Origin: Minisyncoccota bacterium | GTDB lineage: Bacteria; Patescibacteriota; Minisyncoccia; 2-02-FULL-40-12; GWA2-44-9 | Direction of reading: 5' to 3' | Assembly: GCA_018062285.1 (NCBI GenBank) | Contig: JAGOSO010000007.1 | Span: forward strand, 1-37,932 | Length of the DNA: 37,932 bases | Shown here: in pieces, positions 6,245-33,875 of the stretch | Layout of the letters: every line of letters starts with the position of its first letter | Numbering within the stretch: position 1 is the first letter of the stretch | Made by a program: the position numbers and the translations under genes | Notes under the pieces: model-generated | Databases searched by the model: none | Seen by the model: the letters and a program-made list of their open reading frames with translations, nothing else | Told to the model about the DNA's origin: nothing

Positions 6245-6273
6245 TTGACAAAAACACCTTAATTTATTATAGT
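6245..6273 (+). promoter_or_regulatory. Consensus sigma70 promoter TTGACA-N17-TATAGT driving cassette 2
   Basis: ttgacaaaaacaccttaatttattatagt. A roughly 100-nt GC-rich leader follows. Confidence 0.55.
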
Positions 6274-6384
6274 ATTACAACTCAGCAATTCTGCTGGGTT
6301 CTCGGACATAAGGCGCATTAGTCGCACTGCTTCCGGGGAGTTCTCTTAACAACCCTAAGATCACCCAACCCAGGAGTGTTCCAG

Positions 6385-7476
6385 ATGGTTAGAAGTTCGT
6401 TTGTTGTGATGGAGTCGGCGGCCTTGGATGAAACCAAGGACAAAGAACTCATTTTGAGAGGCGTTATTAAGCAGGATTGCCTCACTCATCTGATGGTCGA
6501 CGACTATCAGCGTGAGGCGATGCCCCTTACCGCTCTCTCGAGCATCATTCAGGCTCTCGAAAATGGTGACGCATTACCCGATATCGAACTCGGCATGCGA
6601 GGCGGCCGTTTCAAGGACAAGGACGGCAACTTCGTCCTTCAGGACATCCTCTACATCATCGATGGGCTGCAGCGTGTGAACGCTGCCATCCAGATTCTCA
6701 AAACCAAGCCTGACGTCAAAATTCGGCTTGGCGCTACCGTGCACTTCAACACCACCAAGGAATGGGAACGGGAACGTTTCCGTGTCCTGAACACTCTTCG
6801 GAGCAAGGTTTCTCCCAACGTCCTCCTTCGCAACAAGCGGGAAGAAAGCAGCGCAGTGAAGATGCTTTTCGCCCTCAGCAAGGGCGACAGGCAGTTCGCG
6901 CTCTATGAGCGAATTGCCTGGGGTCAGCGTATGATTAAGGGAGACCTTATCGGTGCGCTGACTTTTGCCAAAGTCACTGGCGTGCTGCACTCTCACAAGG
7001 CACCCACCCGAAGGACTTCCGTCAACCAGTTGGTTCCTGCACTCGACAAGGCGCTGGAGGTTGTGGGTATTCAGGCGATGAGGAAGAACGTGAGAGGGTT
7101 TTTCGACCTTATCGACGAATGTTGGGGGATCAAACGTGTTCAGTATCGTGAAGGGGCCGTGTATATGCGCGGTACGTTCCTTCATGTGATGGCCCGCCTG
7201 ATCTCTGATCACACCGATTTCTGGCGAGGTGATGGTCAGGAGGAGCTCTTCGTTGAAGCTTCTCTTCGCAGAAAGATCGCATCGTTCCCTATCCACGACC
7301 CTGCCGTCACGAGTCTCGCCAGTTCTGGTGGCAAGTCGCGTGACATGTTGTACATGCTCATGCGTGACCACATCAACAGTGGGAAGCGCACGAAGCGCCT
7401 CACTTCTCGGACCGGAGACATGGTCTCCTTGGGAACCGACGACGACGATGATGCTGTCGTCGACAACGAGGAATAG
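6385..7476 (+). CDS. G+C-rich DUF262 / ParB-like nuclease-domain protein (DGQQR-type motif 'IIDGLQRVN', 'DDYQRE'); cargo of cassette 2
   Basis: The track ORF starts at GTG 6376. ATG 6385 sits 8 nt downstream of AGGAG. The N-terminal motifs match the DUF262 (GmrSD N-domain / DndB-like ParB fold) signature. The acidic tail is DDDDDAVVDNEE. Confidence 0.5.
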   Translation: MVRSSFVVMESAALDETKDKELILRGVIKQDCLTHLMVDDYQREAMPLTALSSIIQALENGDALPDIELGMRGGRFKDKDGNFVLQDILYIIDGLQRVNAAIQILKTKPDVKIRLGATVHFNTTKEWERERFRVLNTLRSKVSPNVLLRNKREESSAVKMLFALSKGDRQFALYERIAWGQRMIKGDLIGALTFAKVTGVLHSHKAPTRRTSVNQLVPALDKALEVVGIQAMRKNVRGFFDLIDECWGIKRVQYREGAVYMRGTFLHVMARLISDHTDFWRGDGQEELFVEASLRRKIASFPIHDPAVTSLASSGGKSRDMLYMLMRDHINSGKRTKRLTSRTGDMVSLGTDDDDDAVVDNEE

Positions 7477-7497
7477 TTGCTGATCTCGTCGCTTTGT

Positions 7498-7527
7498 AAG
7501 GGGCCCCAAAAGGGCCCCTTTTTTATT
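7498..7527 (+). terminator. Intrinsic terminator ggggcccc-aaaa-gggcccc + TTTTTTATTT
   Basis: Perfect GC hairpin and T-run immediately after the stop at 7476. Confidence 0.75.
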
Positions 7528-13866: not shown

Positions 13867-15516
13867 ATGGCATTACCAATCGACAAACAAATATTAATTC
13901 TTGGCGAAACTAACTTCCGTAACGAGAAGCAACGGTTTGGTATTAAATCAGATGACCGCCGCCGTCATATGTATGTTGTCGGTTCGACCGGTATGGGTAA
14001 GTCCGAATTTTTGAAGAACATGGCTATCCAAGACATAGAAGAAGGGCGCGGGCTAGCCTTCCTGGATCCTCACGGTGATGGTGCTCAGGCTTTGATTAAC
14101 TTTGTGCCTAAACACCGCATCAAAGATGTCATTTATTTTGATCCTGCCGATCTGGCTTTTCCAATCGCTTTTAATGTTTTGGAAAAAGTAGAATATGAAT
14201 ATCGGCATTTGATTGCTTCTGGTTTGCTGGGTGTATTCAAAAAACTATGGGGCGCGGAAGCTTGGTCCGGAAGAATGGAATATATTTTAAATAATACGAT
14301 CTTGGCTTTGTTGGAGTACCCAGATTCAACCCTATTAGGCATTAACCGCTTGATGTCCTCCAAAGAATATCGCAAAAAAATTGTCGATAATCTTAAAGAT
14401 CCAATCGTTAAGGCTTTTTGGACCGAAGAATTTGCTAAATATTCAGACAAATTTGCCAGTGAAGCAACCGCTGCTATTCAAAACAAAGTTGGTCAGTTTT
14501 CATCTAACAATGTTATTCGTAACATTATTGGTCAGGTTGGGAGTAAACTTGATATACGTAAAATAATGGACGAGGGCAAGATTCTTATCGTTAACTTGTC
14601 CAAAGGTGCTATTGGCGAAGACGCTTCTCGTCTAATCGGTGCTCTTTTAATTACCAAGATTCAGTTAGCGGCCATGTCTCGTGTCGACACACCAGAAGTC
14701 GATCGTCGTGACTTTTATCTATATGTCGACGAGTTCCAGAACTTTGCCACTGAGTCTTTCGCTAATATTTTATCTGAAGCTCGTAAGTACCATTTGAATC
14801 TTGTTGTTGCTCACCAATACATTACTCAGATGGAAGAAGAAGTTCGTGATGCCGTCTTCGGTAACGTTGGCACTCTTGTAACTTTCCGTGTTGGTGCTGA
14901 AGACGCTGAGTTTTTAGAGAAATGGTATTCTCCGGATTTCATGGCCCCAGATATCGTTAACTTGGGTAAACGCGAGATGTATATTAAGTTGATGGTCAAC
15001 GGGATTACCTCCAAAGGCTTTTCAGCTCGCACCAGTGATTCATTAAAAGCTATGGAAGAATCTCATCAAGAAGAAGTTGTTGCTTATTCTAGAGAAAATT
15101 ATGCCACTACTCGCGATGAAGTTGAAAAGAATGTTGCTCAATGGGCCACTCCAATGGAGCCTGTTAATGCTCCCCGAATGGAAGGCGGATATCGAACTTC
15201 AAATCAGGGTCCAGCCCGCCAACCTTACCAAGGTTCTAGGCCAAGAGACAACAACGGCCCTTCTCGACCAAGACCACAATCATTCCAGACGCCTCGTCCT
15301 CCAGCTCCGAATTATGTTCCACAACCTGCCCCAACTAAACCTGTTGTTTCGTTGGATACTCTAAAGGCAGGCGATGCTATTGTGTCTGCTGTCGATTTCC
15401 GTAATCAGAAAAATAAAGTCAGTTTAGGGGATCAAAACGATTCTCGTGAACCTAAGAAGCAAATTGATACCGTCGAACTCAAGAAGATTTTAGAAGAGGC
15501 GCTCCGGTCTAACTAG
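13867..15516 (+). CDS. P-loop ATPase of the TraD/VirD4/HerA-FtsK-like (T4SS coupling-protein-like) family with Pro/Gln-rich C-terminal tail
   Basis: Walker A 'VVGSTGMGKSEFL' and Walker-B-like 'YLYVDEFQNF'. C-terminal disordered PRP-rich region. Confidence 0.5.
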   Translation: MALPIDKQILILGETNFRNEKQRFGIKSDDRRRHMYVVGSTGMGKSEFLKNMAIQDIEEGRGLAFLDPHGDGAQALINFVPKHRIKDVIYFDPADLAFPIAFNVLEKVEYEYRHLIASGLLGVFKKLWGAEAWSGRMEYILNNTILALLEYPDSTLLGINRLMSSKEYRKKIVDNLKDPIVKAFWTEEFAKYSDKFASEATAAIQNKVGQFSSNNVIRNIIGQVGSKLDIRKIMDEGKILIVNLSKGAIGEDASRLIGALLITKIQLAAMSRVDTPEVDRRDFYLYVDEFQNFATESFANILSEARKYHLNLVVAHQYITQMEEEVRDAVFGNVGTLVTFRVGAEDAEFLEKWYSPDFMAPDIVNLGKREMYIKLMVNGITSKGFSARTSDSLKAMEESHQEEVVAYSRENYATTRDEVEKNVAQWATPMEPVNAPRMEGGYRTSNQGPARQPYQGSRPRDNNGPSRPRPQSFQTPRPPAPNYVPQPAPTKPVVSLDTLKAGDAIVSAVDFRNQKNKVSLGDQNDSREPKKQIDTVELKKILEEALRSN

Positions 15517-15720
15517 TTTCTCTCGCTGTTCTCTCCGCCTGTCTCGCAACCTCGAATTCGTCACTGATGCCGAACAAAAAGGCTACCTTGCCGAACTGCT
15601 GTTCGGTTTCCTTTTTGTTACCGGCATAGTTTTCTCATTCTTCGGGCGATAAGACGGCGTCGAGAAGTGCTCAGAAACTAATTAGACCTTCGCTTTTATT
15701 GTTTGTGTTATTAGACAATT
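15517..15720. repeat. Left copy of an approximately 200-bp imperfect inverted repeat (partner 26700-26900); contains a bidirectional terminator hairpin ccgaac-tgct-gttcgg with flanking A/T runs
   Basis: The reverse complement of 26700-26900 aligns. The core 'ccggtaacaaaaaggaaaccgaacagcagttcggcaaggt' matches about 58/59. 'gagacaggc.gagagaacagcgagagaaa' matches 32/33. Flanks differ mostly by transitions. Confidence 0.75.
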
Positions 15721-15730
15721 TGGTCTTCGT

Positions 15731-15958
15731 GTGTTTAAATGTTTGAACATTGGAGGGTTTGTGTCCGAAGAAAAATGTGACGGTATTTGTGACTTGTTGA
15801 GGAAGTTGGGAGAGCAGAGGGGTTGGGATGTGGATACAGCCCATGAGAAAGCTCTGTATACGAAACATGTGCTTGCCCTGCCTTCACTGCGTGACGGTGT
15901 CGAGTATCTGCTGGAGGGCAAGCCTGTCCCGCCGCCGCCCAGCCCCGAAGAGGTCTGA
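15731..15958 (+). CDS. G+C-rich small ORF (75 aa from GTG), unknown; ends 7 nt before terminator 15965-16007
   Basis: No in-frame ATG and a weak RBS. Supported mainly by the downstream terminator and by composition. Overlapping ORFs in other frames exist. Confidence 0.3.
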   Translation: MFKCLNIGGFVSEEKCDGICDLLRKLGEQRGWDVDTAHEKALYTKHVLALPSLRDGVEYLLEGKPVPPPPSPEEV

Positions 15959-15964
15959 ACTTCC

Positions 15965-16007
15965 TGCCCGTGAGCGCACTATCGGTGCCCTCACGGGCAC
16001 TTTTTAT
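15965..16007 (+). terminator. Intrinsic terminator tgcccgtgag-...-ctcacgggca + TTTTT
   Basis: 10-bp stem and T-run. Confidence 0.65.
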
Positions 16008-16029
16008 TACAAAATTAAGACACAAATTG

Positions 16030-16057
16030 CCCCATTTTGTCATCCTTGACAAAATGG
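16030..16057. promoter_or_regulatory. Perfect 12-bp inverted repeat cccattttgtca-tcct-tgacaaaatggg overlapping the -35 of the flotillin promoter; candidate operator
   Basis: Exact palindrome read from the sequence. It overlaps TTGACA at 16046-16051. -10 spacing is ambiguous (TAATAT/TACTCT). Confidence 0.45.
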
Positions 16058-16159
16058 GTATTAATATGCTACTCTATTCACGATTTAGAAATGGATCGCA
16101 CCTGAACAACCTAGGCACCTATGCCACGGGCATTGGCCCAAAAATAGGAGAGAAGACAG

Positions 16160-18457
16160 ATGGAACAAGTGTTGAGTGTGTTGAAGTTGGTCTTGGGCTA
16201 CTGGTGGGTGATTCTCATCATCGCCATGGCTATCGGCTGGAAAGTCAGCATGTATGCATTCGGCATGTTCATCGTGCCGGATGACTCGATCGCTACGTTG
16301 GTCAAGAAGTTCGTACTCCTCGGCGCCAATCGGCAGTTGCCTCCGGGCAAAGTCGTGGCCACCAACGGCGAAGCGGGTATCCAAGCAATCACGCTTGGCC
16401 CCGGTTTCCATTGGGGCTACTGGCCGTGGCAGTACAAGGTCAACATGACCAAGTTCGTGACTGTCGAGCCGGGATTCATCGGTGTCATCGAGTCAATCGA
16501 TGGTGTGCCGTTGCCGGCTGGTCGTGTAATCGGCGTGCCGGTCGAGTGCGACAACTTCCAGGACGCGGTTGCGTTCTTGAAGAACGGCGGTCAGCGTGGA
16601 ACGCAGATGGCCTCCATCCCTCCGGGGAAATGGCGCATCAACAACCTGGTCTTCAAGGTCAGGTCGATTCCCATGACTACCATCGAGCCGGGCCAAATCG
16701 GCATCGTCGAAGCCATCGACGGTGAACCGTTGCCGGCTGGTCGCATCTTGGCTACTCCGGTTGAGTGCGATTCGTTCCAGGACCCGAAGGCCTTCATGGA
16801 CCGCAAGGGCCAGCGTGGTAACCAGATGGCCGTCGTCCCTCCGGGGCAGTGGCGCATCAACACGCAGATGTTCAAGGTCAATCCGTACGCGATGACCATC
16901 ATCGAGTCCAACCAGATCGGCACCGTCGAAGCTCTCGATGGTGACGCGCTGAGCGAGGGTCGCATCATCGGCCGTCAGGTTGAGTGCGATTCGTTCCAGG
17001 ACCCCAAGGCGTTCATGGATGCTGACGGCCAGCGTGGTCCTCAGATGTCCATCATCCCTCCGGGCAAGTACCGGATCAACCCCAAGATCTTCTCTGTCAC
17101 GTCGGTGGACATCATCGACATCCCGCAGGGGAAAGTCGGTATCGTGACGACGAAGGAAGGTACGCCACTCAAGACCGGTGAAATCGCCGGCCCCGAAGTC
17201 GGCGGACATAACTCGTTCCAGGACCCCAAGGCCTTCATCGAAAACGGGGGCAACAAGGGTCTGCAGGAGCAGGTGCTTCTCGCGGGCCGCTACTTCATCA
17301 ATCCTTACTTCGCCAGCGTGGAAGTGAAGGACATGACCGAAGTTCCGATTGCCAACGTCGGCGTCGTCGTTGCCTTCGTCGGCAAAGAAGGCCAGGACGT
17401 TACGGGAGAAGGTTTCCGTCACGGCAATATGGTGCACAAGGGCGAGCGGGGTGTTTGGATCGATGTTCTCGATCCGGGCATGTACCCGATCAACCCCTTC
17501 ACACACAGTGTCAAGTTGGTCCCGACAGCCAACGTCGTTCTGAACTGGGCGACCGGCAAGAACGAATCACACAAGTTGGACGAGAAGCTCTCGACCATCA
17601 CGGTGCGTTCGTCGGACGGATTCACGTTCAACCTGGACGTGAGCCAGATCATCCACATTCCGCGCACTGACGCTCCCAAGGTCATCGCGCGGTTCGGCAG
17701 CATGCAGGCTCTCGTCACGCAGGTTCTGGAACCGACAATCGGGAACTACTTCCGAAACGCGGCTCAGAACTCTGACGCAATCTCGTTCCTCAAAGAACGA
17801 ACTCAGCGTCAGACTGAAGCGAAGACGGCCATCTCGAAGGCTCTTGCCGAGTACAACGTCGGCGCAATCGAGACACTGATCGGCGATATCAATCCGCCGG
17901 AAGCGTTGATGAAGACGCTCACGGATCGGAAGATCGCTGACCAGGAGAAGGTTACCTATCAGACGCAGATGGAAGCTGAGGGTGTTCGTCAGTCGTTGAA
18001 CCAGGCGAGAGCTCTTGCCGATACGCAGAAGGAAGTTGTCGCTGCGGAACGGAAAGTGTCCATTGCCGATTTCGACAAGCAGACCGCCATCAAGAAGGCG
18101 GAAGGCGAAGGCGAAGCTGCGAAGATCAACGCCAGGGCAAATGCCGAGGCGGCTGTTGCGACCGGCGAGGCTCAGGCCAAGGTCACTACGCTCAACGGCG
18201 CGGCCGAAGCAGGAAAGACTCTTGCTGTCGGTAACGCCGAGGCCGAGGTTATCGAAAAGAAGACCAAGGCCATGGATCGTAGCCAGTACGCTGCGGTCGA
18301 AATCGCTCGGGCCTTGGCTGGCTCAGGCAAGCCTTTGGTGCCCGAGATCATGGTCGCTGGTGGTGCCGCCGAAGGCGGTCGAGGAAGTTCTCTCATGGAC
18401 GTCCTCATTGCCCAGATGGTTGCGACGAAGGTCGCTGCCTCAACCGAGAAGAAGTAA
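16160..18457 (+). CDS. G+C-rich flotillin/SPFH (band-7, YqiK-like) membrane protein with four internal ~73-aa tandem repeats and Ala/Glu-rich flotillin C-terminal region
   Basis: N-terminal TM (VLGYWWVILIIAMAIGW). Four repeats contain 'VECD(S/N)FQDPKAF...GQRG.QM...PPG.WRIN' (about 16478-17380). C-terminal EA-rich coiled region 'AEGEGEAAKINARANAEAAVATGEAQAK' is typical of flotillins. Confidence 0.7.
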   Translation: MEQVLSVLKLVLGYWWVILIIAMAIGWKVSMYAFGMFIVPDDSIATLVKKFVLLGANRQLPPGKVVATNGEAGIQAITLGPGFHWGYWPWQYKVNMTKFVTVEPGFIGVIESIDGVPLPAGRVIGVPVECDNFQDAVAFLKNGGQRGTQMASIPPGKWRINNLVFKVRSIPMTTIEPGQIGIVEAIDGEPLPAGRILATPVECDSFQDPKAFMDRKGQRGNQMAVVPPGQWRINTQMFKVNPYAMTIIESNQIGTVEALDGDALSEGRIIGRQVECDSFQDPKAFMDADGQRGPQMSIIPPGKYRINPKIFSVTSVDIIDIPQGKVGIVTTKEGTPLKTGEIAGPEVGGHNSFQDPKAFIENGGNKGLQEQVLLAGRYFINPYFASVEVKDMTEVPIANVGVVVAFVGKEGQDVTGEGFRHGNMVHKGERGVWIDVLDPGMYPINPFTHSVKLVPTANVVLNWATGKNESHKLDEKLSTITVRSSDGFTFNLDVSQIIHIPRTDAPKVIARFGSMQALVTQVLEPTIGNYFRNAAQNSDAISFLKERTQRQTEAKTAISKALAEYNVGAIETLIGDINPPEALMKTLTDRKIADQEKVTYQTQMEAEGVRQSLNQARALADTQKEVVAAERKVSIADFDKQTAIKKAEGEGEAAKINARANAEAAVATGEAQAKVTTLNGAAEAGKTLAVGNAEAEVIEKKTKAMDRSQYAAVEIARALAGSGKPLVPEIMVAGGAAEGGRGSSLMDVLIAQMVATKVAASTEKK

Positions 18458-18477
18458 CATCTCTCTCGGACTACTTA

Positions 18478-18516
18478 CCCGTGGGGTGCGCATGCGCGCT
18501 CCACGGGCTTTTTATT
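18478..18516 (+). terminator. Intrinsic terminator cccgtgg-...-ccacggg + CTTTTTATTT
   Basis: Hairpin and T-run immediately after the stop. Confidence 0.65.
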
Positions 18517-18545
18517 TGACAAAATAGGGTTTAATGATTTATAAT
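18516..18545 (+). promoter_or_regulatory. Consensus promoter TTGACA-N18-TATAAT abutting the preceding terminator
   Basis: ttgacaaaatagggtttaatgatttataat. Confidence 0.5.
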
Positions 18546-18563
18546 ATAAAAGAGGTGACACAC

Positions 18564-19109
18564 ATGGAAGGTCAGTTGGCAGCTATCACAAATCTCGCAG
18601 TAGTTACTCTGTTAATCGCAATCGGGGCGCTTCTCTTGTCTCTGAACAACAGGAGCAGGATCAAGCATCTTGCTACGACTCAGGTTCCTCACCCCCAGGA
18701 GTATCGGGATTATCGCCCGGAACCTCAGGCCCCTGTTTCTCAAACGCTTTCTCAGACTCAGATCAACGATGAGGCACGGCGGCTTATTCGGGAGGCCATC
18801 AGCAGTCTGTTCAGCGGTGTTGACCTGATGAAGTTCCTTCAGGACGGTACGCCGGAACAGCGAAAGGTCATCCTTGATCGGATTCGCGAGAAGCTTCTTG
18901 ATGAGGTCGGCAACACTGTTGATGATGTTTTCGACACTGACAACTCTGACTGGTGCGACGAGTACGAAGCCTTCAGGAAATCTGTCGCTGGCATGATCCC
19001 TGAGATCGTGAAAGAACTCTTCGATGATCCGGAAGGACCTGCCCGAAAGAAAGTTGTCGAGGTTGTCTCCGGGAAGATCACGGAGTATCTCGACGGCGAC
19101 ATGTCGTAG
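18564..19109 (+). CDS. G+C-rich single-pass membrane protein (181 aa), unknown function; downstream neighbour of the flotillin gene
   Basis: The track ORF starts at 18534 inside the -10. ATG 18564 is preceded by AGAGGTGA. TM 'LAAITNLAVVTLLIAIGALLL'. Acidic C-terminus. Confidence 0.5.
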   Translation: MEGQLAAITNLAVVTLLIAIGALLLSLNNRSRIKHLATTQVPHPQEYRDYRPEPQAPVSQTLSQTQINDEARRLIREAISSLFSGVDLMKFLQDGTPEQRKVILDRIREKLLDEVGNTVDDVFDTDNSDWCDEYEAFRKSVAGMIPEIVKELFDDPEGPARKKVVEVVSGKITEYLDGDMS

Positions 19110-19133
19110 TCATCGGTCCCCACCAACACTCGA

Positions 19134-19180
19134 CTGCCTATTGGAAAGAAACATTTCCAGTAGGCAGTTTTTATTTTTTA
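19134..19180 (+). terminator. Long imperfect hairpin (ctgcctattggaaag...atttccagtaggcag) + T-run
   Basis: Read from the sequence. Confidence 0.6.
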
Positions 19181-19318
19181 AACAATATGTTACGTTTTGT
19201 ATGCTAAAAAAGAGTTAAGATTCAATTCGGGACGACCGTCGCAGGCGGGTAGCCGAGGGCAGAGCGGAAAAGTCAGCAGACTTTTAACGCGGGTCGGCGT
19301 GAATTGAACCGAACGAAA

Positions 19319-24181: not shown

Positions 24182-25249
24182 ATGACTACACCTCCGCTAG
24201 AAGCACTAAATATATTTAATGTTGTTCGTTTGTTTGTCGTTGCTACAACGGCTTTCTTTTTAAACTTAATAATTACACATTTTTGGACTAAGGTTTTATT
24301 TACTCGTTTTAAACCTGGCAAAGCCATCGAAAGACCAGATACGCCAATTTTTAATAGTTTACATCGCAAGAAAGAAGGTACCCCAACTATGGGCGGTTTG
24401 CCAATTTGGTTAACTGTTGCAGTTATTACTCTGGGGTGCTGGTTTATGGCTAATACTTTCGACGGTATCTGGAGTCGTATTAGTTTTTTGTCCCGTGGTC
24501 AGACTCTGTTGCCTTTAGGGTTTTTAATTCTCGCTGGTCTAGTCGGTATGATTGATGACATGGTTGGTGTTTTAAAACGTGGAGGTTTGCGCATGATGAA
24601 ACGCTTGTTGTTTTTCTTAATCGTTGCTGCCATTGGCGCTTGGTGGTTTTATTTCAAATTGGATATTCGCACCATCGTCGTCCCATTCTTTGGTGAATAC
24701 TCAATCGGTTGGTTGTATATTCCGTACTTCATGTTCATCATGACCGCTGTGGCCCACTCTATGAATCTTACCGATGGTCTAGACGGTTTGTCTGGTGGGG
24801 TTTTCTTAACAATCTTTGGGGCTCTTACTGCTATCGCTTTTGATCAGGGCCGCTTGGATCTCGCCATTTTCATGAGTGCAATCATGGGCGCTTTAATTGC
24901 TTTTCTTTGGTTTAATATTTATCCCGCCAAGTTTTTCATGGGGGATACTGGGGTAATGGCTCTCGGGTTCACTGTTGGCGTTGTTGCTTTATTGACTAAC
25001 ACTGAATTGCTTTTGCCGATTATCGCTATCGTGCCGCTGATGGAATCTGGTTCCGTTATTCTTCAAACTATTTCTAAAAAATTCCGCGGCAAAAAGATAT
25101 TTCCTTCCACCCCAATTCACCACACCTTCGAAGCTATGGGTTGGCCCGAAACCCAAATCACCATGCGTTTCTGGGTCATCAACGCCATTGGCGCAATTGT
25201 TGGCCTCGTCTTGTTCTTGATCGACAGTAAGTTGCCTCCGTTCAAATAA
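24182..25249 (+). CDS. mraY: Phospho-N-acetylmuramoyl-pentapeptide transferase MraY
   Basis: 'HRKKEGTPTMGG' and the polytopic profile. Confidence 0.85.
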   Translation: MTTPPLEALNIFNVVRLFVVATTAFFLNLIITHFWTKVLFTRFKPGKAIERPDTPIFNSLHRKKEGTPTMGGLPIWLTVAVITLGCWFMANTFDGIWSRISFLSRGQTLLPLGFLILAGLVGMIDDMVGVLKRGGLRMMKRLLFFLIVAAIGAWWFYFKLDIRTIVVPFFGEYSIGWLYIPYFMFIMTAVAHSMNLTDGLDGLSGGVFLTIFGALTAIAFDQGRLDLAIFMSAIMGALIAFLWFNIYPAKFFMGDTGVMALGFTVGVVALLTNTELLLPIIAIVPLMESGSVILQTISKKFRGKKIFPSTPIHHTFEAMGWPETQITMRFWVINAIGAIVGLVLFLIDSKLPPFK

Positions 25250-25278
25250 TCTATATTTAGAGCATATGTTCTTGAAAA

Positions 25279-25294
25279 TAGGCCCATTAGGGCC
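25279..25294. promoter_or_regulatory. Perfect palindrome aggccc-atta-gggcct immediately upstream of the cassette promoter (mraY terminator and/or operator)
   Basis: Read from the sequence. Confidence 0.4.
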
Positions 25295-25295
25295 T

Positions 25296-25325
25296 ATTGA
25301 CTTTTGGGTATAAAATATGGTATAA
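25296..25325 (+). promoter_or_regulatory. Promoter TTGACT-N18-TGgTATAAT (extended -10)
   Basis: ttgacttttgggtataaaatatggtataat. Paralogous to the promoter at 26036. Confidence 0.55.
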
Positions 25326-25401
25326 TTAAGGTACTCTCGTGAGTATAACTTGCGAGTGTTCGTTCACAACATTCAAAGCCTATAAGGCGGAGGATAGACA
25401 T

Positions 25402-25953
25402 ATGAAATGGAATAAGTTCAAGGCGCTTCTTGATTCGAATTACTGGCTTCAGTTTCATATCGGCCCACCCGCGCTTCAGTCGTTGAGGCTCAACGTGCCG
25501 GCGAAGGAGGCTGAGCGTGGACTCAAGGATTACGTTCGGACACGGCTCGATTACATCGCGTTCCGTCCGTTCGAGCAGCTTGACCTTCAGGTTTGTGACA
25601 CGGACGAGAGTGTTGTCGTGCCAAATCCGAAGTACCGCAACATCAAGTTCACGGAAGGAACATCGACTCAGTACGTGATTCGTTTCCATATCGAGGGCGT
25701 GGAATATCCGTTCCATCGTGTTCGATACGTTTATGATCACGGCTCAATCGCTGCTGCCATCAAACATCTCGTGAAGTGGCACGGCGAAACTTCGTGGGGA
25801 GGTCCGAGAGGGCGCGCGTTGAAAATCGACGCCGTCGTTAAGGTTAGCTCTTACTACCACGAAGTTAGCCAGGTCGGGATGCAGCACATCGAGGCCTACG
25901 AGTTCCCCAAAGATTTCGATCTCAAGAAGTTCGAGGGAGAAGTCGCGGCCTAG
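25402..25953 (+). CDS. G+C-rich protein of unknown function (183 aa)
   Basis: The track starts at GTG 25339. ATG 25402 follows GGCGGAGGA. Ends at the terminator module. Confidence 0.5.
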   Translation: MKWNKFKALLDSNYWLQFHIGPPALQSLRLNVPAKEAERGLKDYVRTRLDYIAFRPFEQLDLQVCDTDESVVVPNPKYRNIKFTEGTSTQYVIRFHIEGVEYPFHRVRYVYDHGSIAAAIKHLVKWHGETSWGGPRGRALKIDAVVKVSSYYHEVSQVGMQHIEAYEFPKDFDLKKFEGEVAA

Positions 25954-25956
25954 CAC

Positions 25957-26012
25957 GCCCGTCACACGAAAGGTCCGCCATGCGCGACCCGTGTGGCGGG
26001 CCTTTTAAATTT
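25957..26012 (+). terminator. Terminator module gcccgtcacacg...cgtgtggcgggc + CTTTTAAATTT (copy 1 of a ~70-bp direct repeat)
   Basis: 25951-26020 is about 93% identical to 26624-26693. Confidence 0.65.
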
Positions 26013-26035
26013 AAAAATGTTCAAAAATATCCTAT

Positions 26036-26063
26036 TGACTTTTAAGTAAAAACATAGTATAAT
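26036..26063 (+). promoter_or_regulatory. Promoter TTGACT-N16-TATAAT (paralogue of 25296-25325; shared 'cctattgactttt')
   Basis: Read from the sequence. Confidence 0.5.
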
Positions 26064-26131
26064 TATAAAACAGAGATTAGATAGGTTTTTAAAAATTCAA
26101 CCGCGCCTAAGGGGCGCAGAAAGTAGGAAGT

Positions 26132-26626
26132 ATGGGATTCCCGGTTTGGAAGACTGTCGTTCTCGGTCTGGTTAAGTCCCAGAAGAACTATCGAATGGCC
26201 CTCCGAAAAGCTGGTTACGAAATTAGCGGTTGGGGCGAGAAGGTTCTCAAGAGGACCACGGTCTCTCCGGTGGAACTCGAATTGGATCTCGTCGCCGTGA
26301 CGGTCGAAGAGCTTGGTCTTGAGATTGGCGCGCATCGGGATGTCGCTTGCGCCAAAGCATTGGAGCTTGGTCTCCAGCTTTGCCCAGCGGAAGTTGGTCC
26401 CGCTCTGAGGCTCCTCTACAGGGATCAGCCGCGTGGCGAACTGCTCCGCATAGGTATGCGAGCGGTCGCTTATTCGGCCGGGCGTAAGCTAACGTTCGGT
26501 CTTAACCACAGTGACTTCCGTGGACAAGAACTAAACGGATTTGGTGGCCAAGCACTCGACGGCTATATTGTTGCCGCTCGAGTAGTCTCTCGTATCTGTT
26601 GGGTCTTTGTTCGTCCTCGTAAGTAG
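26132..26626 (+). CDS. G+C-rich protein of unknown function (164 aa)
   Basis: ATG 26132. Leader hairpin gcgcc-taag-gggcgc. Terminator module copy 2 follows. Confidence 0.45.
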   Translation: MGFPVWKTVVLGLVKSQKNYRMALRKAGYEISGWGEKVLKRTTVSPVELELDLVAVTVEELGLEIGAHRDVACAKALELGLQLCPAEVGPALRLLYRDQPRGELLRIGMRAVAYSAGRKLTFGLNHSDFRGQELNGFGGQALDGYIVAARVVSRICWVFVRPRK

Positions 26627-26629
26627 CAC

Positions 26630-26690
26630 GCCCGTCACACGAAAGGCCGCCACGCGCGACCCGTGTGGCGGGCCTTTTAAATTTAAAAAA
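26630..26690 (+). terminator. Terminator module copy 2
   Basis: See 25957-26012. Confidence 0.65.
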
Positions 26691-26699
26691 TAATTCTTC

Positions 26700-26900
26700 A
26701 TTTAATAAAAACAAAAATAGCGAAGCGCTCACTATTTTCGAGCGTTTCTCGACGCCGTATTCTCGTCCGAAAATTTATGGAATTCTTCCGGTAACAAAAA
26801 GGAAACCGAACAGCAGTTCGGCAAGGTGGCCTTTTTGTTCGGAAGTAATGAATAAATTGAAGTTACGAGACAGGCAGAGAGAACAGCGAGAGAAATAGTG
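26700..26900. repeat. Right copy of the ~200-bp inverted repeat (partner 15517-15720)
   Basis: See the left copy. Confidence 0.75.
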
Positions 26901-26930
26901 AGGGCGCAGCGAACCTGCTATAATAAGGAT

Positions 26931-28004
26931 ATGCGGAAACGGCTTTTTTGGATACTGACAATTTTGATAATCGCGGGGCTGGCCATTTTATCTTCGGCTG
27001 GAATTGTGGATGCGCAGAAGAAATTTGGGTCAGCCTATTATTATTTCTTTCACCAGCTTTTATATGGCATAGCGCCAGGGATTTTGTTGGCGTATATCCT
27101 TTCAAGGATTGATTTTAAAATCTGGCGCAAATTTTCTTTGCCAATTTTGTTGGTGGCCTTAGGTTTGATGACTTTAGTATTTGTTTCTCACTTCGGTTTT
27201 GGGGCTAAGGGGGCGACTCGTTGGTTGAGTATTGGAGGGATTGTTTTCCAGCCAGCTGAAATTTTAAAGCTATCTTTGGTTATATATTTTGCAGCTTGGT
27301 TTGGTGGTCGACATGAACGCACAAGTCATTGGCTCTATGGTGCAGCACCATTCTTTATCGTTTTGGGATTCGCCGGTTTGTTGTTGGCTTTGCAGCCAGA
27401 CATTGGAACTTTGCTGGTTGTTGGGTCCATTGCTTTGATAATGTACTTTGTGGCTGGGGCAAATATGAAACTCCTTGGGTCTATTGTCGTCATTGGTTTG
27501 ATCGGATTGGTTTTGCTGATTAGGTTTGAGCCATATCGCTTTAATCGTATCCGTTCTTTTATTGACCCTAATGCCGACGTTCGAGGAATTTCTTATCAAG
27601 TTAACCAGGCCAAAATTGCCATTGGCTCTGGTGGTGTTTTTGGTGTTGGCTTTGGGCATAGTACTCAAAAATTTGGCTTCTTGCCTGAGCCAGTTGGAGA
27701 CTCTATTTTTGCAATTGTGGTTGAGGAGCTAGGTTTAGTCGGGGGAATGGTTATTGTCGGATTGTTTGTGGCCTTATGCTTTACGTTGATGCAAATTGCG
27801 ATAGCCACGACCGATTCCTTTGGACGCTTATTTGTAAGCGGAATCAATATATGGATAATGGTTCAAGCGTTTATTAACATCGCCGCTATCTCTGGCCTCG
27901 CCCCGCTAACTGGTATCCCGCTACCATTTATTAGTTATGGTGGGACAGCCATCATCGCTCTTCTGGCCGGCTTGGGGATTGTATTTAATGTCGCCAATGA
28001 CTAA
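26931..28004 (+). CDS. ftsW: SEDS-family peptidoglycan glycosyltransferase FtsW/RodA
   Basis: Polytopic. 'ISYGGTAIIA' C-terminal SEDS motif. The track starts at GTG 26898, inside the inverted repeat. First ATG is 26931. Confidence 0.75.
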   Translation: MRKRLFWILTILIIAGLAILSSAGIVDAQKKFGSAYYYFFHQLLYGIAPGILLAYILSRIDFKIWRKFSLPILLVALGLMTLVFVSHFGFGAKGATRWLSIGGIVFQPAEILKLSLVIYFAAWFGGRHERTSHWLYGAAPFFIVLGFAGLLLALQPDIGTLLVVGSIALIMYFVAGANMKLLGSIVVIGLIGLVLLIRFEPYRFNRIRSFIDPNADVRGISYQVNQAKIAIGSGGVFGVGFGHSTQKFGFLPEPVGDSIFAIVVEELGLVGGMVIVGLFVALCFTLMQIAIATTDSFGRLFVSGINIWIMVQAFINIAAISGLAPLTGIPLPFISYGGTAIIALLAGLGIVFNVAND

Positions 28005-28307: not shown

Positions 28308-28352
28308 ATTTGTTTCAATATAATAGCACCTTTTTTATTTATGTGCAATACT

Positions 28353-28383
28353 TTGACTTTTTAGTGGGGCAGGTGTTTAATAT
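28353..28383 (+). promoter_or_regulatory. Promoter-like TTGACT-N17/19-(TTTAAT/TAATAT) for cassette 5
   Basis: Read from the sequence. The -10 is ambiguous. Confidence 0.35.
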
Positions 28384-28400
28384 GCGAAAGGAGTTTGCCA

Positions 28401-28697
28401 ATGAAGACAGTTAAGGATCTTACATGGGGAATTGGTTTCCTCACAGGGATAAAGCTTAATGCCCTCCCTGAGTCTGACCGTTCGGAGATTATCGCCGATG
28501 CTCAAAAGCTTGGCGAGCAACTCCTGGAAGACGCAAAGGGTTTGCTCAAAACCAGTTCTTTGCCGGTTGCTCTGTGTGGTCTTCCTGCGGAGATGGTGCT
28601 GAGTTCTGAGGCAGAAAGGCTTTTTGACGCCCTCGTGGCGAAGAAGGAAGAGGTCTTTGCCCGGTGCGCCAATGAACAGCAGACCGGTAATGGCTGA
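28401..28697 (+). CDS. Moderately G+C-rich small protein (98 aa), unknown
   Basis: The track starts at TTG 28395. ATG 28401 is 7 nt after AAAGGAG. Followed by a 12-bp-stem terminator. Confidence 0.45.
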   Translation: MKTVKDLTWGIGFLTGIKLNALPESDRSEIIADAQKLGEQLLEDAKGLLKTSSLPVALCGLPAEMVLSSEAERLFDALVAKKEEVFARCANEQQTGNG

Positions 28698-28707
28698 AGA
28701 TCGTTTT

Positions 28708-28753
28708 GCCCGTCGGCACTTAAAAACAAGGTGCCTACGGGCACTTTGTTTTT
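28708..28753 (+). terminator. Terminator gcccgtcggcac-loop-gtgcctacgggc + TTTGTTTTT
   Basis: Same 'gcccgt..gcac/gtgc..acgggc' stem style as 15965-16007. Confidence 0.6.
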
Positions 28754-31364: not shown

Positions 31365-31375
31365 TATAAAAATAT

Positions 31376-31759
31376 ATGGGAGAACAAAATAATAATTCGG
31401 AGTTCTGGAAGAAGTTGGAGAAAGAGATTGCTGAAGAACAGGAAGCTCGCAAGGAGTATTTGCCAAAACTCGAGCAAGACGTCCAAAAACTAAAGAGTAG
31501 GTATGAAGTATTTTTAGAAGAAAGTCCTGGTGATGCTCTTCGCGCAAAGAGGGATCTGGTGGAAGGAATCGTGGCACTCGAAGAACTCAAAGAAAGAATT
31601 AGGAGATGTGCTGATGACCCTTCAAAAAGACATAATCTTAGCGAACTAGAATTAAAGGAGCTTGAGAGGAGGGTTATGCAAGATCTTGGCTATCCAGAGG
31701 ACGAACTCAAGTTGTTCGATGAATATATCGAATATCTAAAACAAAAAAATCAGCCCTAG
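31376..31759 (+). CDS. Coiled-coil charged protein (127 aa), unknown
   Basis: E/K/R-rich heptad-like sequence. Confidence 0.45.
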   Translation: MGEQNNNSEFWKKLEKEIAEEQEARKEYLPKLEQDVQKLKSRYEVFLEESPGDALRAKRDLVEGIVALEELKERIRRCADDPSKRHNLSELELKELERRVMQDLGYPEDELKLFDEYIEYLKQKNQP

Positions 31760-31811
31760 TTTTTATCGATAAAAGTTCCGACCTTAAGTTAAAAAGTGAT
31801 TCAAGGACTGA

Positions 31812-31875
31812 TTTTGGCCCGCCAAGTAGCGCAATCATGCGTGAACAGCGGGCCTCGTTTTATTATTGACAAAAT
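31812..31875 (+). repeat. Array repeat R1 (64 bp): hairpin ggcccgc-...-gcgggcc + T-run + TTGACAAAAT -35
   Basis: Near-identical copies at 32085-32148 and 32359-32422 (period 273/274 bp). Half-copy at 32917-32943. Confidence 0.8.
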
Positions 31876-31915
31876 ATTTATTTGGTGGTAGTATATTAGA
31901 ACAAGGAGGAGCGAG

Positions 31916-32071
31916 ATGAGAGTGTCGAGGGTTCTAGTTCTGATTGGTGTTGGCGCCGCAGCGGGCGCCATGTTCCACTATTGGGTGTACCCCTCATTCG
32001 TGGATGAGGTAGGGGTGGCAGTGGTGGCCATGCTTGTGGTTCACCTTTATCCTCGTTTGAAGCGTCGGTAG
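31916..32071 (+). CDS. Small hydrophobic peptide A (51 aa) MRVSRVLVLIGVGAAAGAMFHYWVYPSFVDEVGVAVVAMLVVHLYPRLKRR
   Basis: TGgTAGTAT extended -10 and AAGGAGGA RBS 6 nt before the ATG. Under 60 aa, so absent from the track. Paralogous to peptide B. Confidence 0.55.
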   Translation: MRVSRVLVLIGVGAAAGAMFHYWVYPSFVDEVGVAVVAMLVVHLYPRLKRR

Positions 32072-32084
32072 TTGTGTTCCTGTC

Positions 32085-32148
32085 TTTTGGCCCGCTAAGT
32101 AGCGCAATCATGCGTGAACAGCGGGCCTCGTTTTATTATTGACAAAAT
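32085..32148 (+). repeat. Array repeat R2
   Basis: See R1. Confidence 0.8.
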
Positions 32149-32182
32149 ATGGTTTTAATGTTAATGTATAAAAATTGGAGGC

Positions 32183-32350
32183 ATGATGCAGATTCCAGAA
32201 GGGGCGAAGTTACCATGGCTAGTTTTTGTTGGAGTTGCTGTGGGGGTTATTTTTCATAACCTCGTGAACTCTTCAAGGGTTCTTGAGGTTGCGGTGATGG
32301 TTGCGGTGATGGTCCTGTGTCGACGTTACGGTCCGTTGAAACGTGGATGA
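32183..32350 (+). CDS. Small hydrophobic peptide B (55 aa) MMQIPEGAKLPWLVFVGVAVGVIFHNLVNSSRVLEVAVMVAVMVLCRRYGPLKRG
   Basis: TTGGAGG RBS. Shares the G-V-G/A...FH...EV-V-AVM...LKR pattern with peptide A. Confidence 0.55.
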   Translation: MMQIPEGAKLPWLVFVGVAVGVIFHNLVNSSRVLEVAVMVAVMVLCRRYGPLKRG

Positions 32351-32358
32351 CGGTCCCA

Positions 32359-32422
32359 TTTTGGCCCGCTAAGTAGCGCAATCATGCGTGAACAGCGGGC
32401 CTCGTTTTGTTATTGCAAAAAC
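32359..32422 (+). repeat. Array repeat R3 (-35 variant TTGCAA, -10 TATAAT)
   Basis: See R1. Confidence 0.8.
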
Positions 32423-32461
32423 AATTTTCTGTACTATAATGTTGGTGCAAAGGGGTGGATT

Positions 32462-32674
32462 ATGTGGAAGGGAATTAATGCCTGGTTGAATCGTCATGCC
32501 AGGACGGCGAATGCTGTTGCGTTCTTTTTCTCCCTGGCATCTCTCGCCCGGGACGCACAGGCTCACACATTAATGACGATTGATAACAAGCCTTGGACAG
32601 CCATGTCGATCGTTATTGTGATCAGCTGCATTTTGTTCGAGGTCGACAGGGCCTATTTTTCCAAAAGGAGCTAG
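32462..32674 (+). CDS. Small membrane peptide C (70 aa) with hydrophobic core and basic tail
   Basis: ATG 32462 follows AAAGGGG. The track ORF 32384-32674 includes the upstream promoter region. Confidence 0.5.
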   Translation: MWKGINAWLNRHARTANAVAFFFSLASLARDAQAHTLMTIDNKPWTAMSIVIVISCILFEVDRAYFSKRS

Positions 32675-32676
32675 CT

Positions 32677-32886
32677 GTGCCGGTGTACCTTTTGCAGTAT
32701 GCCGTGGAGTTGTCGGGCGATGAGGCCGCTCACGCGTTCGATGAAGCAATTCTTGCAGAGGCCAGGAAGAACAGTGTTATGGTCGAAGAAGTTAGGGTTA
32801 GTCGAGGCGACCATGTCCTTCGTTTTTCTGTGCCCCTTCATTCAGGCTTGAACCTCGCAGATCTTCCCAGAAGTAAAAGAGACTAG
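32677..32886 (+). CDS. Small soluble acidic protein (69 aa, GTG start), translationally coupled to peptide C
   Basis: AAGGAG-N6-GTG at 32665-32679, 3 nt after the peptide C stop. The track lists a longer out-of-context start at 32593. Confidence 0.45.
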   Translation: MPVYLLQYAVELSGDEAAHAFDEAILAEARKNSVMVEEVRVSRGDHVLRFSVPLHSGLNLADLPRSKRD

Positions 32887-32910
32887 GATTTATCAGACAA
32901 CAAAACTTAA

Positions 32911-32943
32911 GGGGCTCGCCACAGCGGGCCTCGTTTTTTTATC
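32911..32943 (+). terminator. Terminal half-repeat/terminator (…cacagcgggcctcGTTTTTTTAT)
   Basis: Matches the 3' half of R1-R3 without a promoter. Confidence 0.55.
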
Positions 32944-32966
32944 TAGAAAGTGGTATTTTGATATAT

Positions 32967-33875
32967 ATGAAGTCGTTTTTGCAGACAAAGGAGTGGTTGA
33001 ATTTCCAAGAGTCAGCTGGACGGAAAGTTTGGCGTTTTGATGATGGAAAAGTAGTAGCTAATATTATCCAGCATGATTTACCGTTTGGAATGAACTATTT
33101 ATATATTCCGCATGGTCCAGAGATTCATTTAGAAAATATTTCCGGTGGTCTTCGTAACGAGTTAGAAAGTTTTATTTCTTATTTAAAAAAAATAGCCAAA
33201 GAAGAGAAATCTATTTTTATAAAAATAGAACCATTGCAGGATAGTGTTATTGAGTTGCTGTATGGTGCTGGTTTTAGAAAATCATCAAAAGAAATTCAGC
33301 CTCATCGGTCGGTGATTATGGATCTAGATAAGTCTGAAGAAGAGATGTTGGCAGCGATGCACCATAAGACACGCTACAACATTAAAGTTGCAGAAAAGAA
33401 TGAATTAAAATTAGTTTTCCGTAAAGACGTAGATACTTTTTGGAATTTGTTAAAACAAACTGCCAAGAGAGATAACTTTTCGACTCATCAAAAAAGTTAT
33501 TACGAAAAACTTTGCTCCACCGAAGGCTTAATGTGTGAGACGGCTTTCATTGAGCATAATGATAAATCAGTAGTGGGTGCCATTTGGTTAGCTTCCGGCG
33601 ACACTGCCTACTATTTGCATGGTGCGATGGATCGCGATCCTGCTTACAGGCCAATGATGGCTCCATACTTAATGCAGTGGGAGTTGATAAAAACAGCTAA
33701 GAAATATGGTATGAAGTATTATGACTTCTGGGGCATTGATGCCAACAGGTACCCCGGCGTCACTAGGTTTAAATTAGGCTGGGGCGGCCGCCAAGTTGAA
33801 TATCCTGGGGCCTTTGATATGTCCATCCGCGGTTTCTGGTTTATGATGTACAAAATTTTAAGAAAAATATTATAA
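32967..33875 (+). CDS. FemAB-family aminoacyl-tRNA-dependent peptidoglycan peptidyltransferase
   Basis: 'MKSFLQTKEWLNFQESAG..' N-terminus and 'WGIDAN...FKLGWGG' C-terminal region typical of FemX/FemAB. The track starts at TTG 32958. Confidence 0.6.
   Translation: MKSFLQTKEWLNFQESAGRKVWRFDDGKVVANIIQHDLPFGMNYLYIPHGPEIHLENISGGLRNELESFISYLKKIAKEEKSIFIKIEPLQDSVIELLYGAGFRKSSKEIQPHRSVIMDLDKSEEEMLAAMHHKTRYNIKVAEKNELKLVFRKDVDTFWNLLKQTAKRDNFSTHQKSYYEKLCSTEGLMCETAFIEHNDKSVVGAIWLASGDTAYYLHGAMDRDPAYRPMMAPYLMQWELIKTAKKYGMKYYDFWGIDANRYPGVTRFKLGWGGRQVEYPGAFDMSIRGFWFMMYKILRKIL

Follow-up and report, generated by a model that had tools for sequence, protein, structure and literature searches.

The junction between mraY and ftsW in contig JAGOSO010000007.1, which stems from a metagenome-assembled genome of Candidatus Pacebacteria (candidate phyla radiation, CPR) and was analysed over its whole length of 37.9 kb ("the window"), contains two unrelated open reading frames (ORFs) in head-to-tail orientation. 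ORF1 and ORF2 are each preceded by a near-consensus predicted promoter (P1 and P2) and followed by a hairpin module (T1 and T2), and these ends are similar in the two units. We consider it rather probable that they represent two autonomous, monocistronic accessory units, which lie in a strain-variable insertion hotspot and whose regulatory ends were copied locally. The coordinates are compiled in Table 1; the public locus tags in this assembly are KBC81_03645 and KBC81_03650.

T1 and T2 differ by one mismatch and one indel of 1 nt in 67 alignment columns, i.e. they are 97% identical (about 93% across the 70 nt that had been delimited in an initial annotation of the sequence). The shuffle control for this match gave 0/100. 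The left end of each module coincides with the TAG stop codon of the respective ORF, as had been noticed in that annotation. The RNA is predicted to fold into a 12-bp outer stem (GCCCGUCACACG/CGUGUGGCGGGC), which encloses an inner structure of ~21 nt and is followed by CUUUU. The folding free energies are -33.1 and -29.3 kcal/mol, and the z-scores are -5.5 and -4.1 for T1 and T2, respectively, so that both are credible candidates for intrinsic terminators. The 60 nt past the stop codons are 95% identical between unit 1 and unit 2, compared with 34% identity to L001, a locus with an ORF1 homologue. The module is present twice in the 38 kb, both times at this locus. The initial annotation had proposed to search for it elsewhere. 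A pattern of both stem arms with any loop had three matches in the GTDB representative genomes, a set outside of which the window contig lies, and all three were chance matches in high-GC genomes. An 18-mer composed of the 3′ arm and the T-tract had 52 matches in the JGI metagenomes and IMG/VR, with a likeness of at most 19-25 nt and no meaningful extension. Overall, the matches were short hairpins of a generic kind or due to chance. The module is absent from these three collections, and therefore it does not form a widespread shell.

P1 and P2 each agree with the sigma-70 consensus at 11 of 12 positions and are the top two sites within the region of 23-29 kb. The shared promoter sequence that had been described initially is present: the two promoters are 86% identical over 36 nt (five differences), and an exact 13-mer, CCTATTGACTTTT, has two occurrences in the window, at 25293 and 26031. 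A weak likeness continues for about 20 nt further upstream (ATGTTC..AAAATA). In the spacer, P2 agrees with P1 at 11 of 15 positions, versus 5 of 15 for the orthologous promoter of a close relative (L064, see below), as read from the alignment, and therefore P2 appears to be a recent local paralogue of P1. Taken together, the sequence comparisons support the view that the promoters and the terminators of the two units are local paralogues. A promoter 16-mer had seven matches in IMG/VR, all of which were unrelated and attributable to chance.

The cargo differs between the units. In agreement with the first description, the proteins of 183 aa and 164 aa have no mutual similarity: BLASTP yielded an E value of 3.8, profile-profile comparison with HHalign a probability of 0.15%, and blastn and tblastx revealed no likeness of ORF1 and ORF2 outside the promoter and terminator modules. 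The predicted folds also differ, i.e. an alpha/beta fold without a match for ORF1 versus a C-type lectin fold for ORF2. Searches of Pfam, PHROGs, PADLOC and NCBIfam yielded nothing for ORF1 or ORF2, and neither was matched by tblastn against phage records. Both ORFs are regarded as coding because they have conserved protein families and confident structure models. The possibility that the GC-rich segments are large structured RNAs was rejected for the same reason, and also because Rfam, applied to the whole window, detected one tRNA only and no credible match in the island.

To characterise the site, mraY neighbourhoods of relatives with 80-91% identical MraY proteins were compared. Two of them have no cargo between mraY and ftsW, and the gaps are 19 nt (L065) and 63 nt (L067). 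L066 contains an ORF for a membrane protein of 64 aa with its own promoter and terminator, and the genome of P0136 encodes an ABC ATPase of 617 aa at this site. L064 (GCA_034680565.1, JAXOUH010018551.1), whose MraY is 91% identical, contains an unrelated ORF, whose length is at least 99 aa because the contig ends within it, while the window has ORF1 and ORF2. The mraY-ftsW junction thus appears to be a gene-insertion hotspot with cargo that differs among relatives. The sequence past mraY in L064 is aataGGCCCAaccGGGCCTATTGACTTTTT..TATAAT, i.e. a hairpin and a promoter as at P1, and this promoter (GGCCCAnnnGGGCCTATTGACTTTT..TATAAT), the orthologue of P1, would drive a different GC-rich ORF (MTNKLPVFTEEQ...). 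P1 probably belongs to the hotspot site, because it is common to L064 and absent at the empty sites. The small hairpin directly before P1, AGGCCCATTAGGGCCT, is kept in L064 as GGCCCAACCGGGCC and is absent in L065; it is part of the island, not of the ancestral mraY flank, and is probably the mraY terminator or an insulator. An assembly chimera was considered unlikely, because the hairpin and the promoter occupy the equivalent site in L064, an independent assembly. The initial proposal of a conserved shell with swapped cargo could be retained in part: the cargo is unrelated, the promoters and terminators would be local paralogues, and the L064 promoter precedes a different ORF; on the other side, the module is unique to the locus. 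As a description, shell and cargo are adequate, and the synteny comparison adds support to it.

Table 1. Coordinates of genes, predicted regulatory elements and repeats at the mraY-ftsW junction of the window.
Feature	Position	Strand	Description
mraY	24182-25249	+	Left flank of the island; Pfam
Small hairpin AGGCCCATTAGGGCCT	25281-25296	+	Directly before the -35 box of P1; read from the sequence
Predicted promoter P1	25293-25328	+	TTGACT-N18-TATAAT, TG-extended; -35 at 25297-25302, -10 at 25321-25326
Window-specific insertion	25306-26914	+	About 1.6 kb between mraY and ftsW; not covered in blastn versus L064-L067
ORF1 5′-UTR (untranslated region)	25327-25401	+	Two predicted hairpins, GGAGG ribosome-binding site
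ORF1	25402-25953	+	183 aa; uncharacterised alpha/beta family; motifs MKWxKF, YIAFRPF, FHIEG, DAVVK
Terminator module T1	25951-26017	+	12-bp GC-rich outer stem and U-tract; starts at the TAG stop codon of ORF1
Predicted promoter P2	26031-26065	+	TTGACT-N17-TATAAT; -35 at 26035-26040, -10 at 26058-26063
ORF2	26132-26626	+	164 aa; C-type-lectin fold; CPR family of variable proteins of diversity-generating retroelements (DGRs)
Part of ORF2 equivalent to a variable region (VR)	~26480-26626	+	Family alignment
Terminator module T2	26624-26689	+	97% identical to T1; starts at the TAG stop codon of ORF2
~220-nt repeat element	26703-26924	-	ftsW edge of the island; inverted copy at 15487-15710 (+)
ftsW	start ATG 26931	+	Right flank of the island; Pfam, start set by comparison with relatives

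The base composition also sets the island apart. The GC contents of ORF1 and ORF2 are 53% and 55%, respectively, compared with ~43% for the rest of the contig and 41% for the backbone that is common to relatives. Further window-specific segments found by blastn are 15532-19318, 28349-28737 and 31365-32967. At least four core-gene junctions with variable inserts are found within 20 kb. The shared backbone and the window-specific segments show that the contig is composed of a conserved core with small variable inserts. A survey of cargo composition (L001, L002, L004, L060-L064, L066 and the window) revealed that genes of the ORF1 and ORF2 families and the cargo of L064 and L066 have GC contents of 55-64%. 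Eight of the nine hosts have GC contents of 40-53% (most of them 40-49%, L002 ~53%), and L061 is the exception with 59%. The GC content at third codon positions is 66-82% for the cargo of the other loci and 55-65% for the window ORFs. These values suggest that the cargo stems from a GC-rich pool of mobile genes or is under unusual selection. With the exception of three, the plausible window ORFs with a length of 120 aa or more were scanned with Pfam, and no integrase, transposase, reverse transcriptase or recombinase was found among the scanned ORFs. PHROGs yielded no match for the ORFs at the locus.

ORF1 has two close homologues, and an exhaustive profile search yielded 79 related clusters. 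The structure model has a pLDDT (predicted local distance difference test) of 94. The N-terminal MKWNKF is kept among the homologues, arguing for the 183-aa reading, and the public call of 111 aa (KBC81_03645, P0001) appears to be truncated at the N-terminus. The 5′-UTR of ORF1 is 77% identical to that in L001, compared with 59% for the coding sequence. In a comparison of three UTR regions of the family (window 25327-25401, L001 3936-4000, L002 788-847), the two predicted hairpins are kept, and two of their base pairs are maintained via changes on both sides. The UTR is conserved with homologues and thus travels with the cargo, and in this family it may be a cis-regulatory RNA. The ORF1 family has no localised hypervariable block. 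Its alignment was too divergent for the design of a pattern for IMG/VR.

ORF2 has about 40 homologues, and the named ones are all from Parcubacteria or Pacebacteria. The structure model has a pLDDT of 90.5, and when the ORF2 profile was searched against PDB sequences, nothing was found. The family alignment has an invariant core, LCPAEVGP..LRL, whereas the final ~40 residues are hypervariable and end with WVFVRPRK. DGR targets in CPR bacteria have been described to have no recognisable domains beyond the lectin-type fold (PMC8144416). At one locus (L004, 5480-6464), the 3′ end of the homologue P0008 is present a second time downstream, and an ORF with an RVT_1 domain is also found there. The VR and the downstream copy, i.e. 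the template repeat (TR), align over 129 bases, and 20 of 20 mismatches are at adenines of the TR, which is a DGR signature. The ORF2 family is thus a DGR target family. The RVT_1 ORF of L004 has just 136 aa, and therefore the reverse transcriptase looks truncated. Another locus, L063, closely resembles the L004 DGR and is cut by the contig end. Most other ORF2 homologues stand singly amid housekeeping genes.

For ORF2 itself, no template repeat was detected, i.e. 26440-26626 has no counterpart with at least 55% identity anywhere else in the window, and no reverse transcriptase was found among the Pfam-scanned window ORFs. If they exist, both would be located elsewhere in the genome. The VR-equivalent part has an insertion of six residues and a low local model confidence, so that ORF2 is regarded as an orphan target, possibly a remote or a decayed (inactive) one. 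A relative of ORF2 with 33% identity was observed on a contig with ~60% GC that is classed as viral (L068, 4992-5468; IMG/VR UViG_3300014208_001442). It has no template repeat nearby, and the contig may be an integrative/conjugative element instead of a phage, because an FtsK/SpoIIIE-type ATPase is encoded.

Repeated modules and GC-rich cargo are also found at other sites of the contig. The two copies of the ~220-nt repeat (Table 1) are 83% identical in a core of 161 nt and 79% identical over 224 nt. The repeat contains a hairpin, GCCGAACTGCTGTTCGG; Rfam gave no match for the repeat, and it was not detected in the loci of the relatives. The larger insertion 15532-19318 has a GC content of 54.5% and lies between a gene for a TraG/VirD4-like ATPase and an HD-domain gene, two genes that are direct neighbours in L065 and the P0136 genome. 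Its cargo consists of a small ORF at ~15761-15959, a 765-aa SPFH/Band-7 protein with three internal repeats of 219 nt (16538-17194), and an ORF of 191 aa, each with its own predicted promoter and terminator.

The design with a junction of a terminator and a promoter between GC-rich ORFs recurs in the contig, once in compact form at 18478-18545 and with three to four further junctions in 31788-32969. The latter array is composed of a hairpin GGCCCGCY..AGCGGGCC, followed by TCGTTTT and by a TTGACAAAATAT promoter. It contains three full copies (with spacings of 273 and 274 nt) and a partial one, and the identity in the module core is ~98% for copy 1 versus copy 2 and ~86% for copy 3. The modules are arranged around small ORFs, among them one of 51 aa (31916-32071) and one of 55 aa (32183-32350), and the array is absent in L065 and L066. 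By eye, the membrane ORFs of 51 aa and 55 aa look like distant paralogues. L002 is an independent case of repeated modules around unrelated cargo: it has three copies of an intergenic module of 67 nt (641-707, 1436-1502 and ~2600-2660), the first two of which are 91% identical, and they precede an ORF1 homologue, an unrelated ORF of 118 aa, and the region past a glyoxalase gene.

In the explanation that we propose, each unit would be read from its near-consensus sigma-70 promoter, and transcription would be stopped by the intrinsic terminator at the stop codon. With a promoter and a terminator of its own, each unit could be expressed independently and would be insulated from the essential flanking genes. 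The parts that would serve insulation are the small hairpin past mraY, the terminator past each ORF, and the -10 box of ftsW itself. P1 would be resident at the site, and P2 and one of the terminators would be local copies, which were probably made when the second cargo was added. Conceivable routes for the copying are a recombination between alternative hotspot alleles, an unequal recombination or a Campbell-type integration of a circular copy, in either case via the terminator, or a duplication of the unit that was followed by cargo replacement via the short homologies of the promoters and terminators. All three could be accomplished by housekeeping homologous recombination, and a dedicated recombinase would not be needed. 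The lack of mobility genes in the scan and of the module elsewhere led us to this reading as moron-like autonomous units.

Several observations weigh against this explanation. P1 and P2 are more diverged (5/36) than T1 and T2 (2/67; Fisher p = 0.049), and therefore a single duplication would fit only if gene conversion or different constraints are added. The boundary of the repeat coincides exactly with the stop codon in both units, and plain homologous recombination gives no specific reason to expect such sharpness. Each of the two large GC-rich islands has the ~220-nt repeat at its outer edge, in both cases with the same end facing inward, and this is not accounted for by the explanation. 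The activities of the promoters and terminators rest on consensus and energy predictions, and the route of their duplication is one that we infer. Finally, the window samples ~38 kb of the genome, and a genome-wide module family or a cognate DGR may be present elsewhere.

Some of these observations would be expected if UTR and ORF were moved together between a resident promoter and terminator by a dedicated site- or structure-specific recombination, with the modules in place of attI and attC. Such an exchange would account for the sharp boundaries (the -10/start region on the left and exactly the TAG on the right), the P1-type promoter with different cargo in L064, the repeated modules around unrelated cargo in L002 and in window 31788-32969, and the ~220-nt repeat that edges both large islands with an equal end inward. 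However, neither a recombinase or transposase nor a reverse transcriptase was detected among the scanned window ORFs, the searches of the collections gave no further copy of the T module, the module sequences are wholly different between loci, and each unit has its own promoter. Elsewhere, ORF1 and ORF2 homologues are found with unrelated promoters and terminators, although at protein identities of 50-55% they are uninformative about exchange boundaries; the informative shell comparisons are those of the window with L064 and of unit 1 with unit 2. We therefore regard a dedicated exchange as quite unlikely, and the exchange loosely analogous to integrons that had been suggested initially is not supported, as an integrase is likewise lacking among the scanned ORFs. 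A similarly low probability is assigned to the possibility that the 67-nt terminator is a dispersed palindrome, like repetitive extragenic palindromic (REP) sequences or miniature inverted-repeat transposable elements (MITEs), or the target of a terminator-seeking element, which landed twice independently, and that the promoter likeness is mostly consensus. The module is a long stable hairpin, as in such elements, the contig has further repeated hairpin modules, and the promoters of other islands share TTGACAAAAT-type -35 regions, so that some of the promoter similarity is generic. Yet a dispersed element is difficult to reconcile with just two copies in 38 kb, both of which are here and start from the identical TAG base, with the absence of copies in the GTDB representatives, JGI metagenomes and IMG/VR, and with spacer bases of P1 and P2 that agree beyond the consensus.

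The DGR relationship of ORF2 raises the question whether the hairpin is a DGR hairpin or cruciform downstream of a VR, so that the copy past ORF1 would mark a second or newly recruited DGR target. The hairpin begins right past the end of the VR-equivalent part of this DGR-type variable protein, and there is a precedent for heterologous targeting: in phage BPP-1, the initiation of mutagenic homing (IMH) sequence together with a GC-rich hairpin 4-34 bp past the VR is sufficient for a heterologous gene to be targeted (PMC3240598). Described DGR hairpins have stems of 7-10 bp and a 4-nt GRNA loop (PMC3240598), whereas the hairpins at this locus have a 12-bp stem and the ~21-nt inner structure. Upstream of the stop codons there is no sequence common to ORF1 and ORF2, so that ORF1 has no IMH or VR; ORF1 does not have a C-type-lectin fold, its family does not have a localised hypervariable block, and the contig has neither a template repeat nor, among its scanned ORFs, a reverse transcriptase. 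On the grounds of the geometry and the lack of an IMH common to ORF1 this reading, which is very improbable, was rejected. Even less credible is a simple tandem gene duplication with copies that diverged past recognition, the outcome that the initial annotation had named as refuting its cassette proposal. The units are of similar size (738- and 672-nt spacing) and have similar ends, and the array at 31.8-32.4 kb with the 51-aa and 55-aa ORFs resembles such an event by eye. Nevertheless, the alignment, profile and fold comparisons described above all speak against divergent or hidden paralogues, each ORF has a separate family elsewhere, and non-coding ends that are 97% identical are incompatible with a coding divergence to randomness. 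Paralogy of ORF1 and ORF2 is thus refuted.

The preferred reading, two autonomous units with locally copied ends, assigns the locus to known kinds of systems, of which it is a fresh example, i.e. an insertion hotspot, moron-like units, and an orphan CPR DGR-type protein, together with a local duplication of regulatory ends. Like the "moron" elements of phages HK97 and HK022 (reviewed in PMC3594210), the units are additions between genes that are adjacent in relatives, have their own (predicted) promoter and terminator, and differ in GC content from their surroundings. Unlike morons, they are located in a cellular chromosome between genes of the division and cell wall (dcw) cluster, with no phage genes nearby and no phage homologues detected by tblastn, and they share a copied terminator and promoter, which is outside the moron definition. 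Hotspots for horizontal gene transfer between core genes that have no genes of mobile elements have been described by Oliveira et al. 2017 (PMC5635113). The mraY-ftsW site resembles them in that one core-gene junction has varying accessory content, that an integrase or transposase is lacking, and that double homologous recombination at the flanks would be sufficient; the difference is the very small scale (0-2 genes) in a streamlined CPR genome.

With integron cassettes, the locus shares tandem unrelated ORFs, each with a conserved structured 3′ element, at one chromosomal site. In contrast to integrons, no IntI was found among the scanned window ORFs, and cassettes are mostly promoterless and read from a common Pc, whereas the window units have a promoter and a terminator each. 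Integron attC sites are imperfect palindromes with extrahelical bases and R/L boxes. The 3′ element of the window is a near-perfect 12-bp GC stem with a U-tract, which is 97% identical between the units and unique to the locus. ORF2 resembles the CPR DGR variable proteins (clade 2; PMC8144416) in being small, in having a C-terminal C-type-lectin fold as its sole domain and a hypervariable C-terminus, and in the true VR/TR pair of its L004 homologue; it differs in that the window contig lacks a template repeat, a reverse transcriptase and an accessory gene.

If the proposed explanation is correct, a tiny, streamlined CPR genome gains genes as self-contained, insulated units at few intergenic junctions, and the essential operons are not disturbed. 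An uncharacterised DGR-type family with a lectin fold and the ORF1 family, whose fold is unmatched, would then be placed among the fast-turnover genes of an episymbiont, and on account of this fast turnover both would be candidate families for a role in cell-cell or virus interactions. A more far-reaching possibility, which is speculative and unlikely, is that CPR bacteria of the Paceibacteria type have "expression sockets", i.e. resident promoters and terminator hairpins at core-gene junctions. GC-rich cargo would be plugged in, swapped and stacked without an integrase, via short promoter/terminator modules or flanking repeat modules, and it would be drawn from a GC-rich mobile pool that is shared among CPR cells and perhaps the mobile elements of their hosts. 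If the shells were indeed reusable recombination points, this would be a simple cassette exchange that is free of recombinases, which the present evidence does not require. The stop-codon boundary, the unequal divergence of promoters and terminators, the ~220-nt repeat, the recurrent modules and the GC-rich cargo keep such a reading at a low probability, and none of them requires it.

Additional features of the flanks were observed. Besides mraY and ftsW, the genes identified by Pfam include those for a D-Ala-D-Ala carboxypeptidase and for an aminoacyl-tRNA synthetase of class II (Asp/Lys/Asn type). In three genomes (window 26919-26933, L065 7078-7098, L066 ~7420-7436), a box with the sequence TATAAT or TACAAT is located just 6 nt upstream of the ftsW ATG, and this position of the -10 box suggests that the ftsW mRNA is leaderless in this lineage. 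The GTG start at 26898 that was chosen by the ORF finder is probably wrong.

Three further GC-rich stretches of the window resemble parts of the units described above. An ORF of 366 aa without a Pfam match (6376-7476) lies between a predicted promoter (6245-6273) and a predicted terminator (7498-7520), and the GC-rich region extends over 6245-7520. On the minus strand, a perfect (12/12) TG-extended promoter sequence at 2766-2738 faces a GC-rich stretch (2400-2766) with a terminator-like hairpin at 2429-2416. A GC-rich ORF of 100 aa (28395-28697) is located at the variable junction between the genes for S20 and uvrB (28349-28737).

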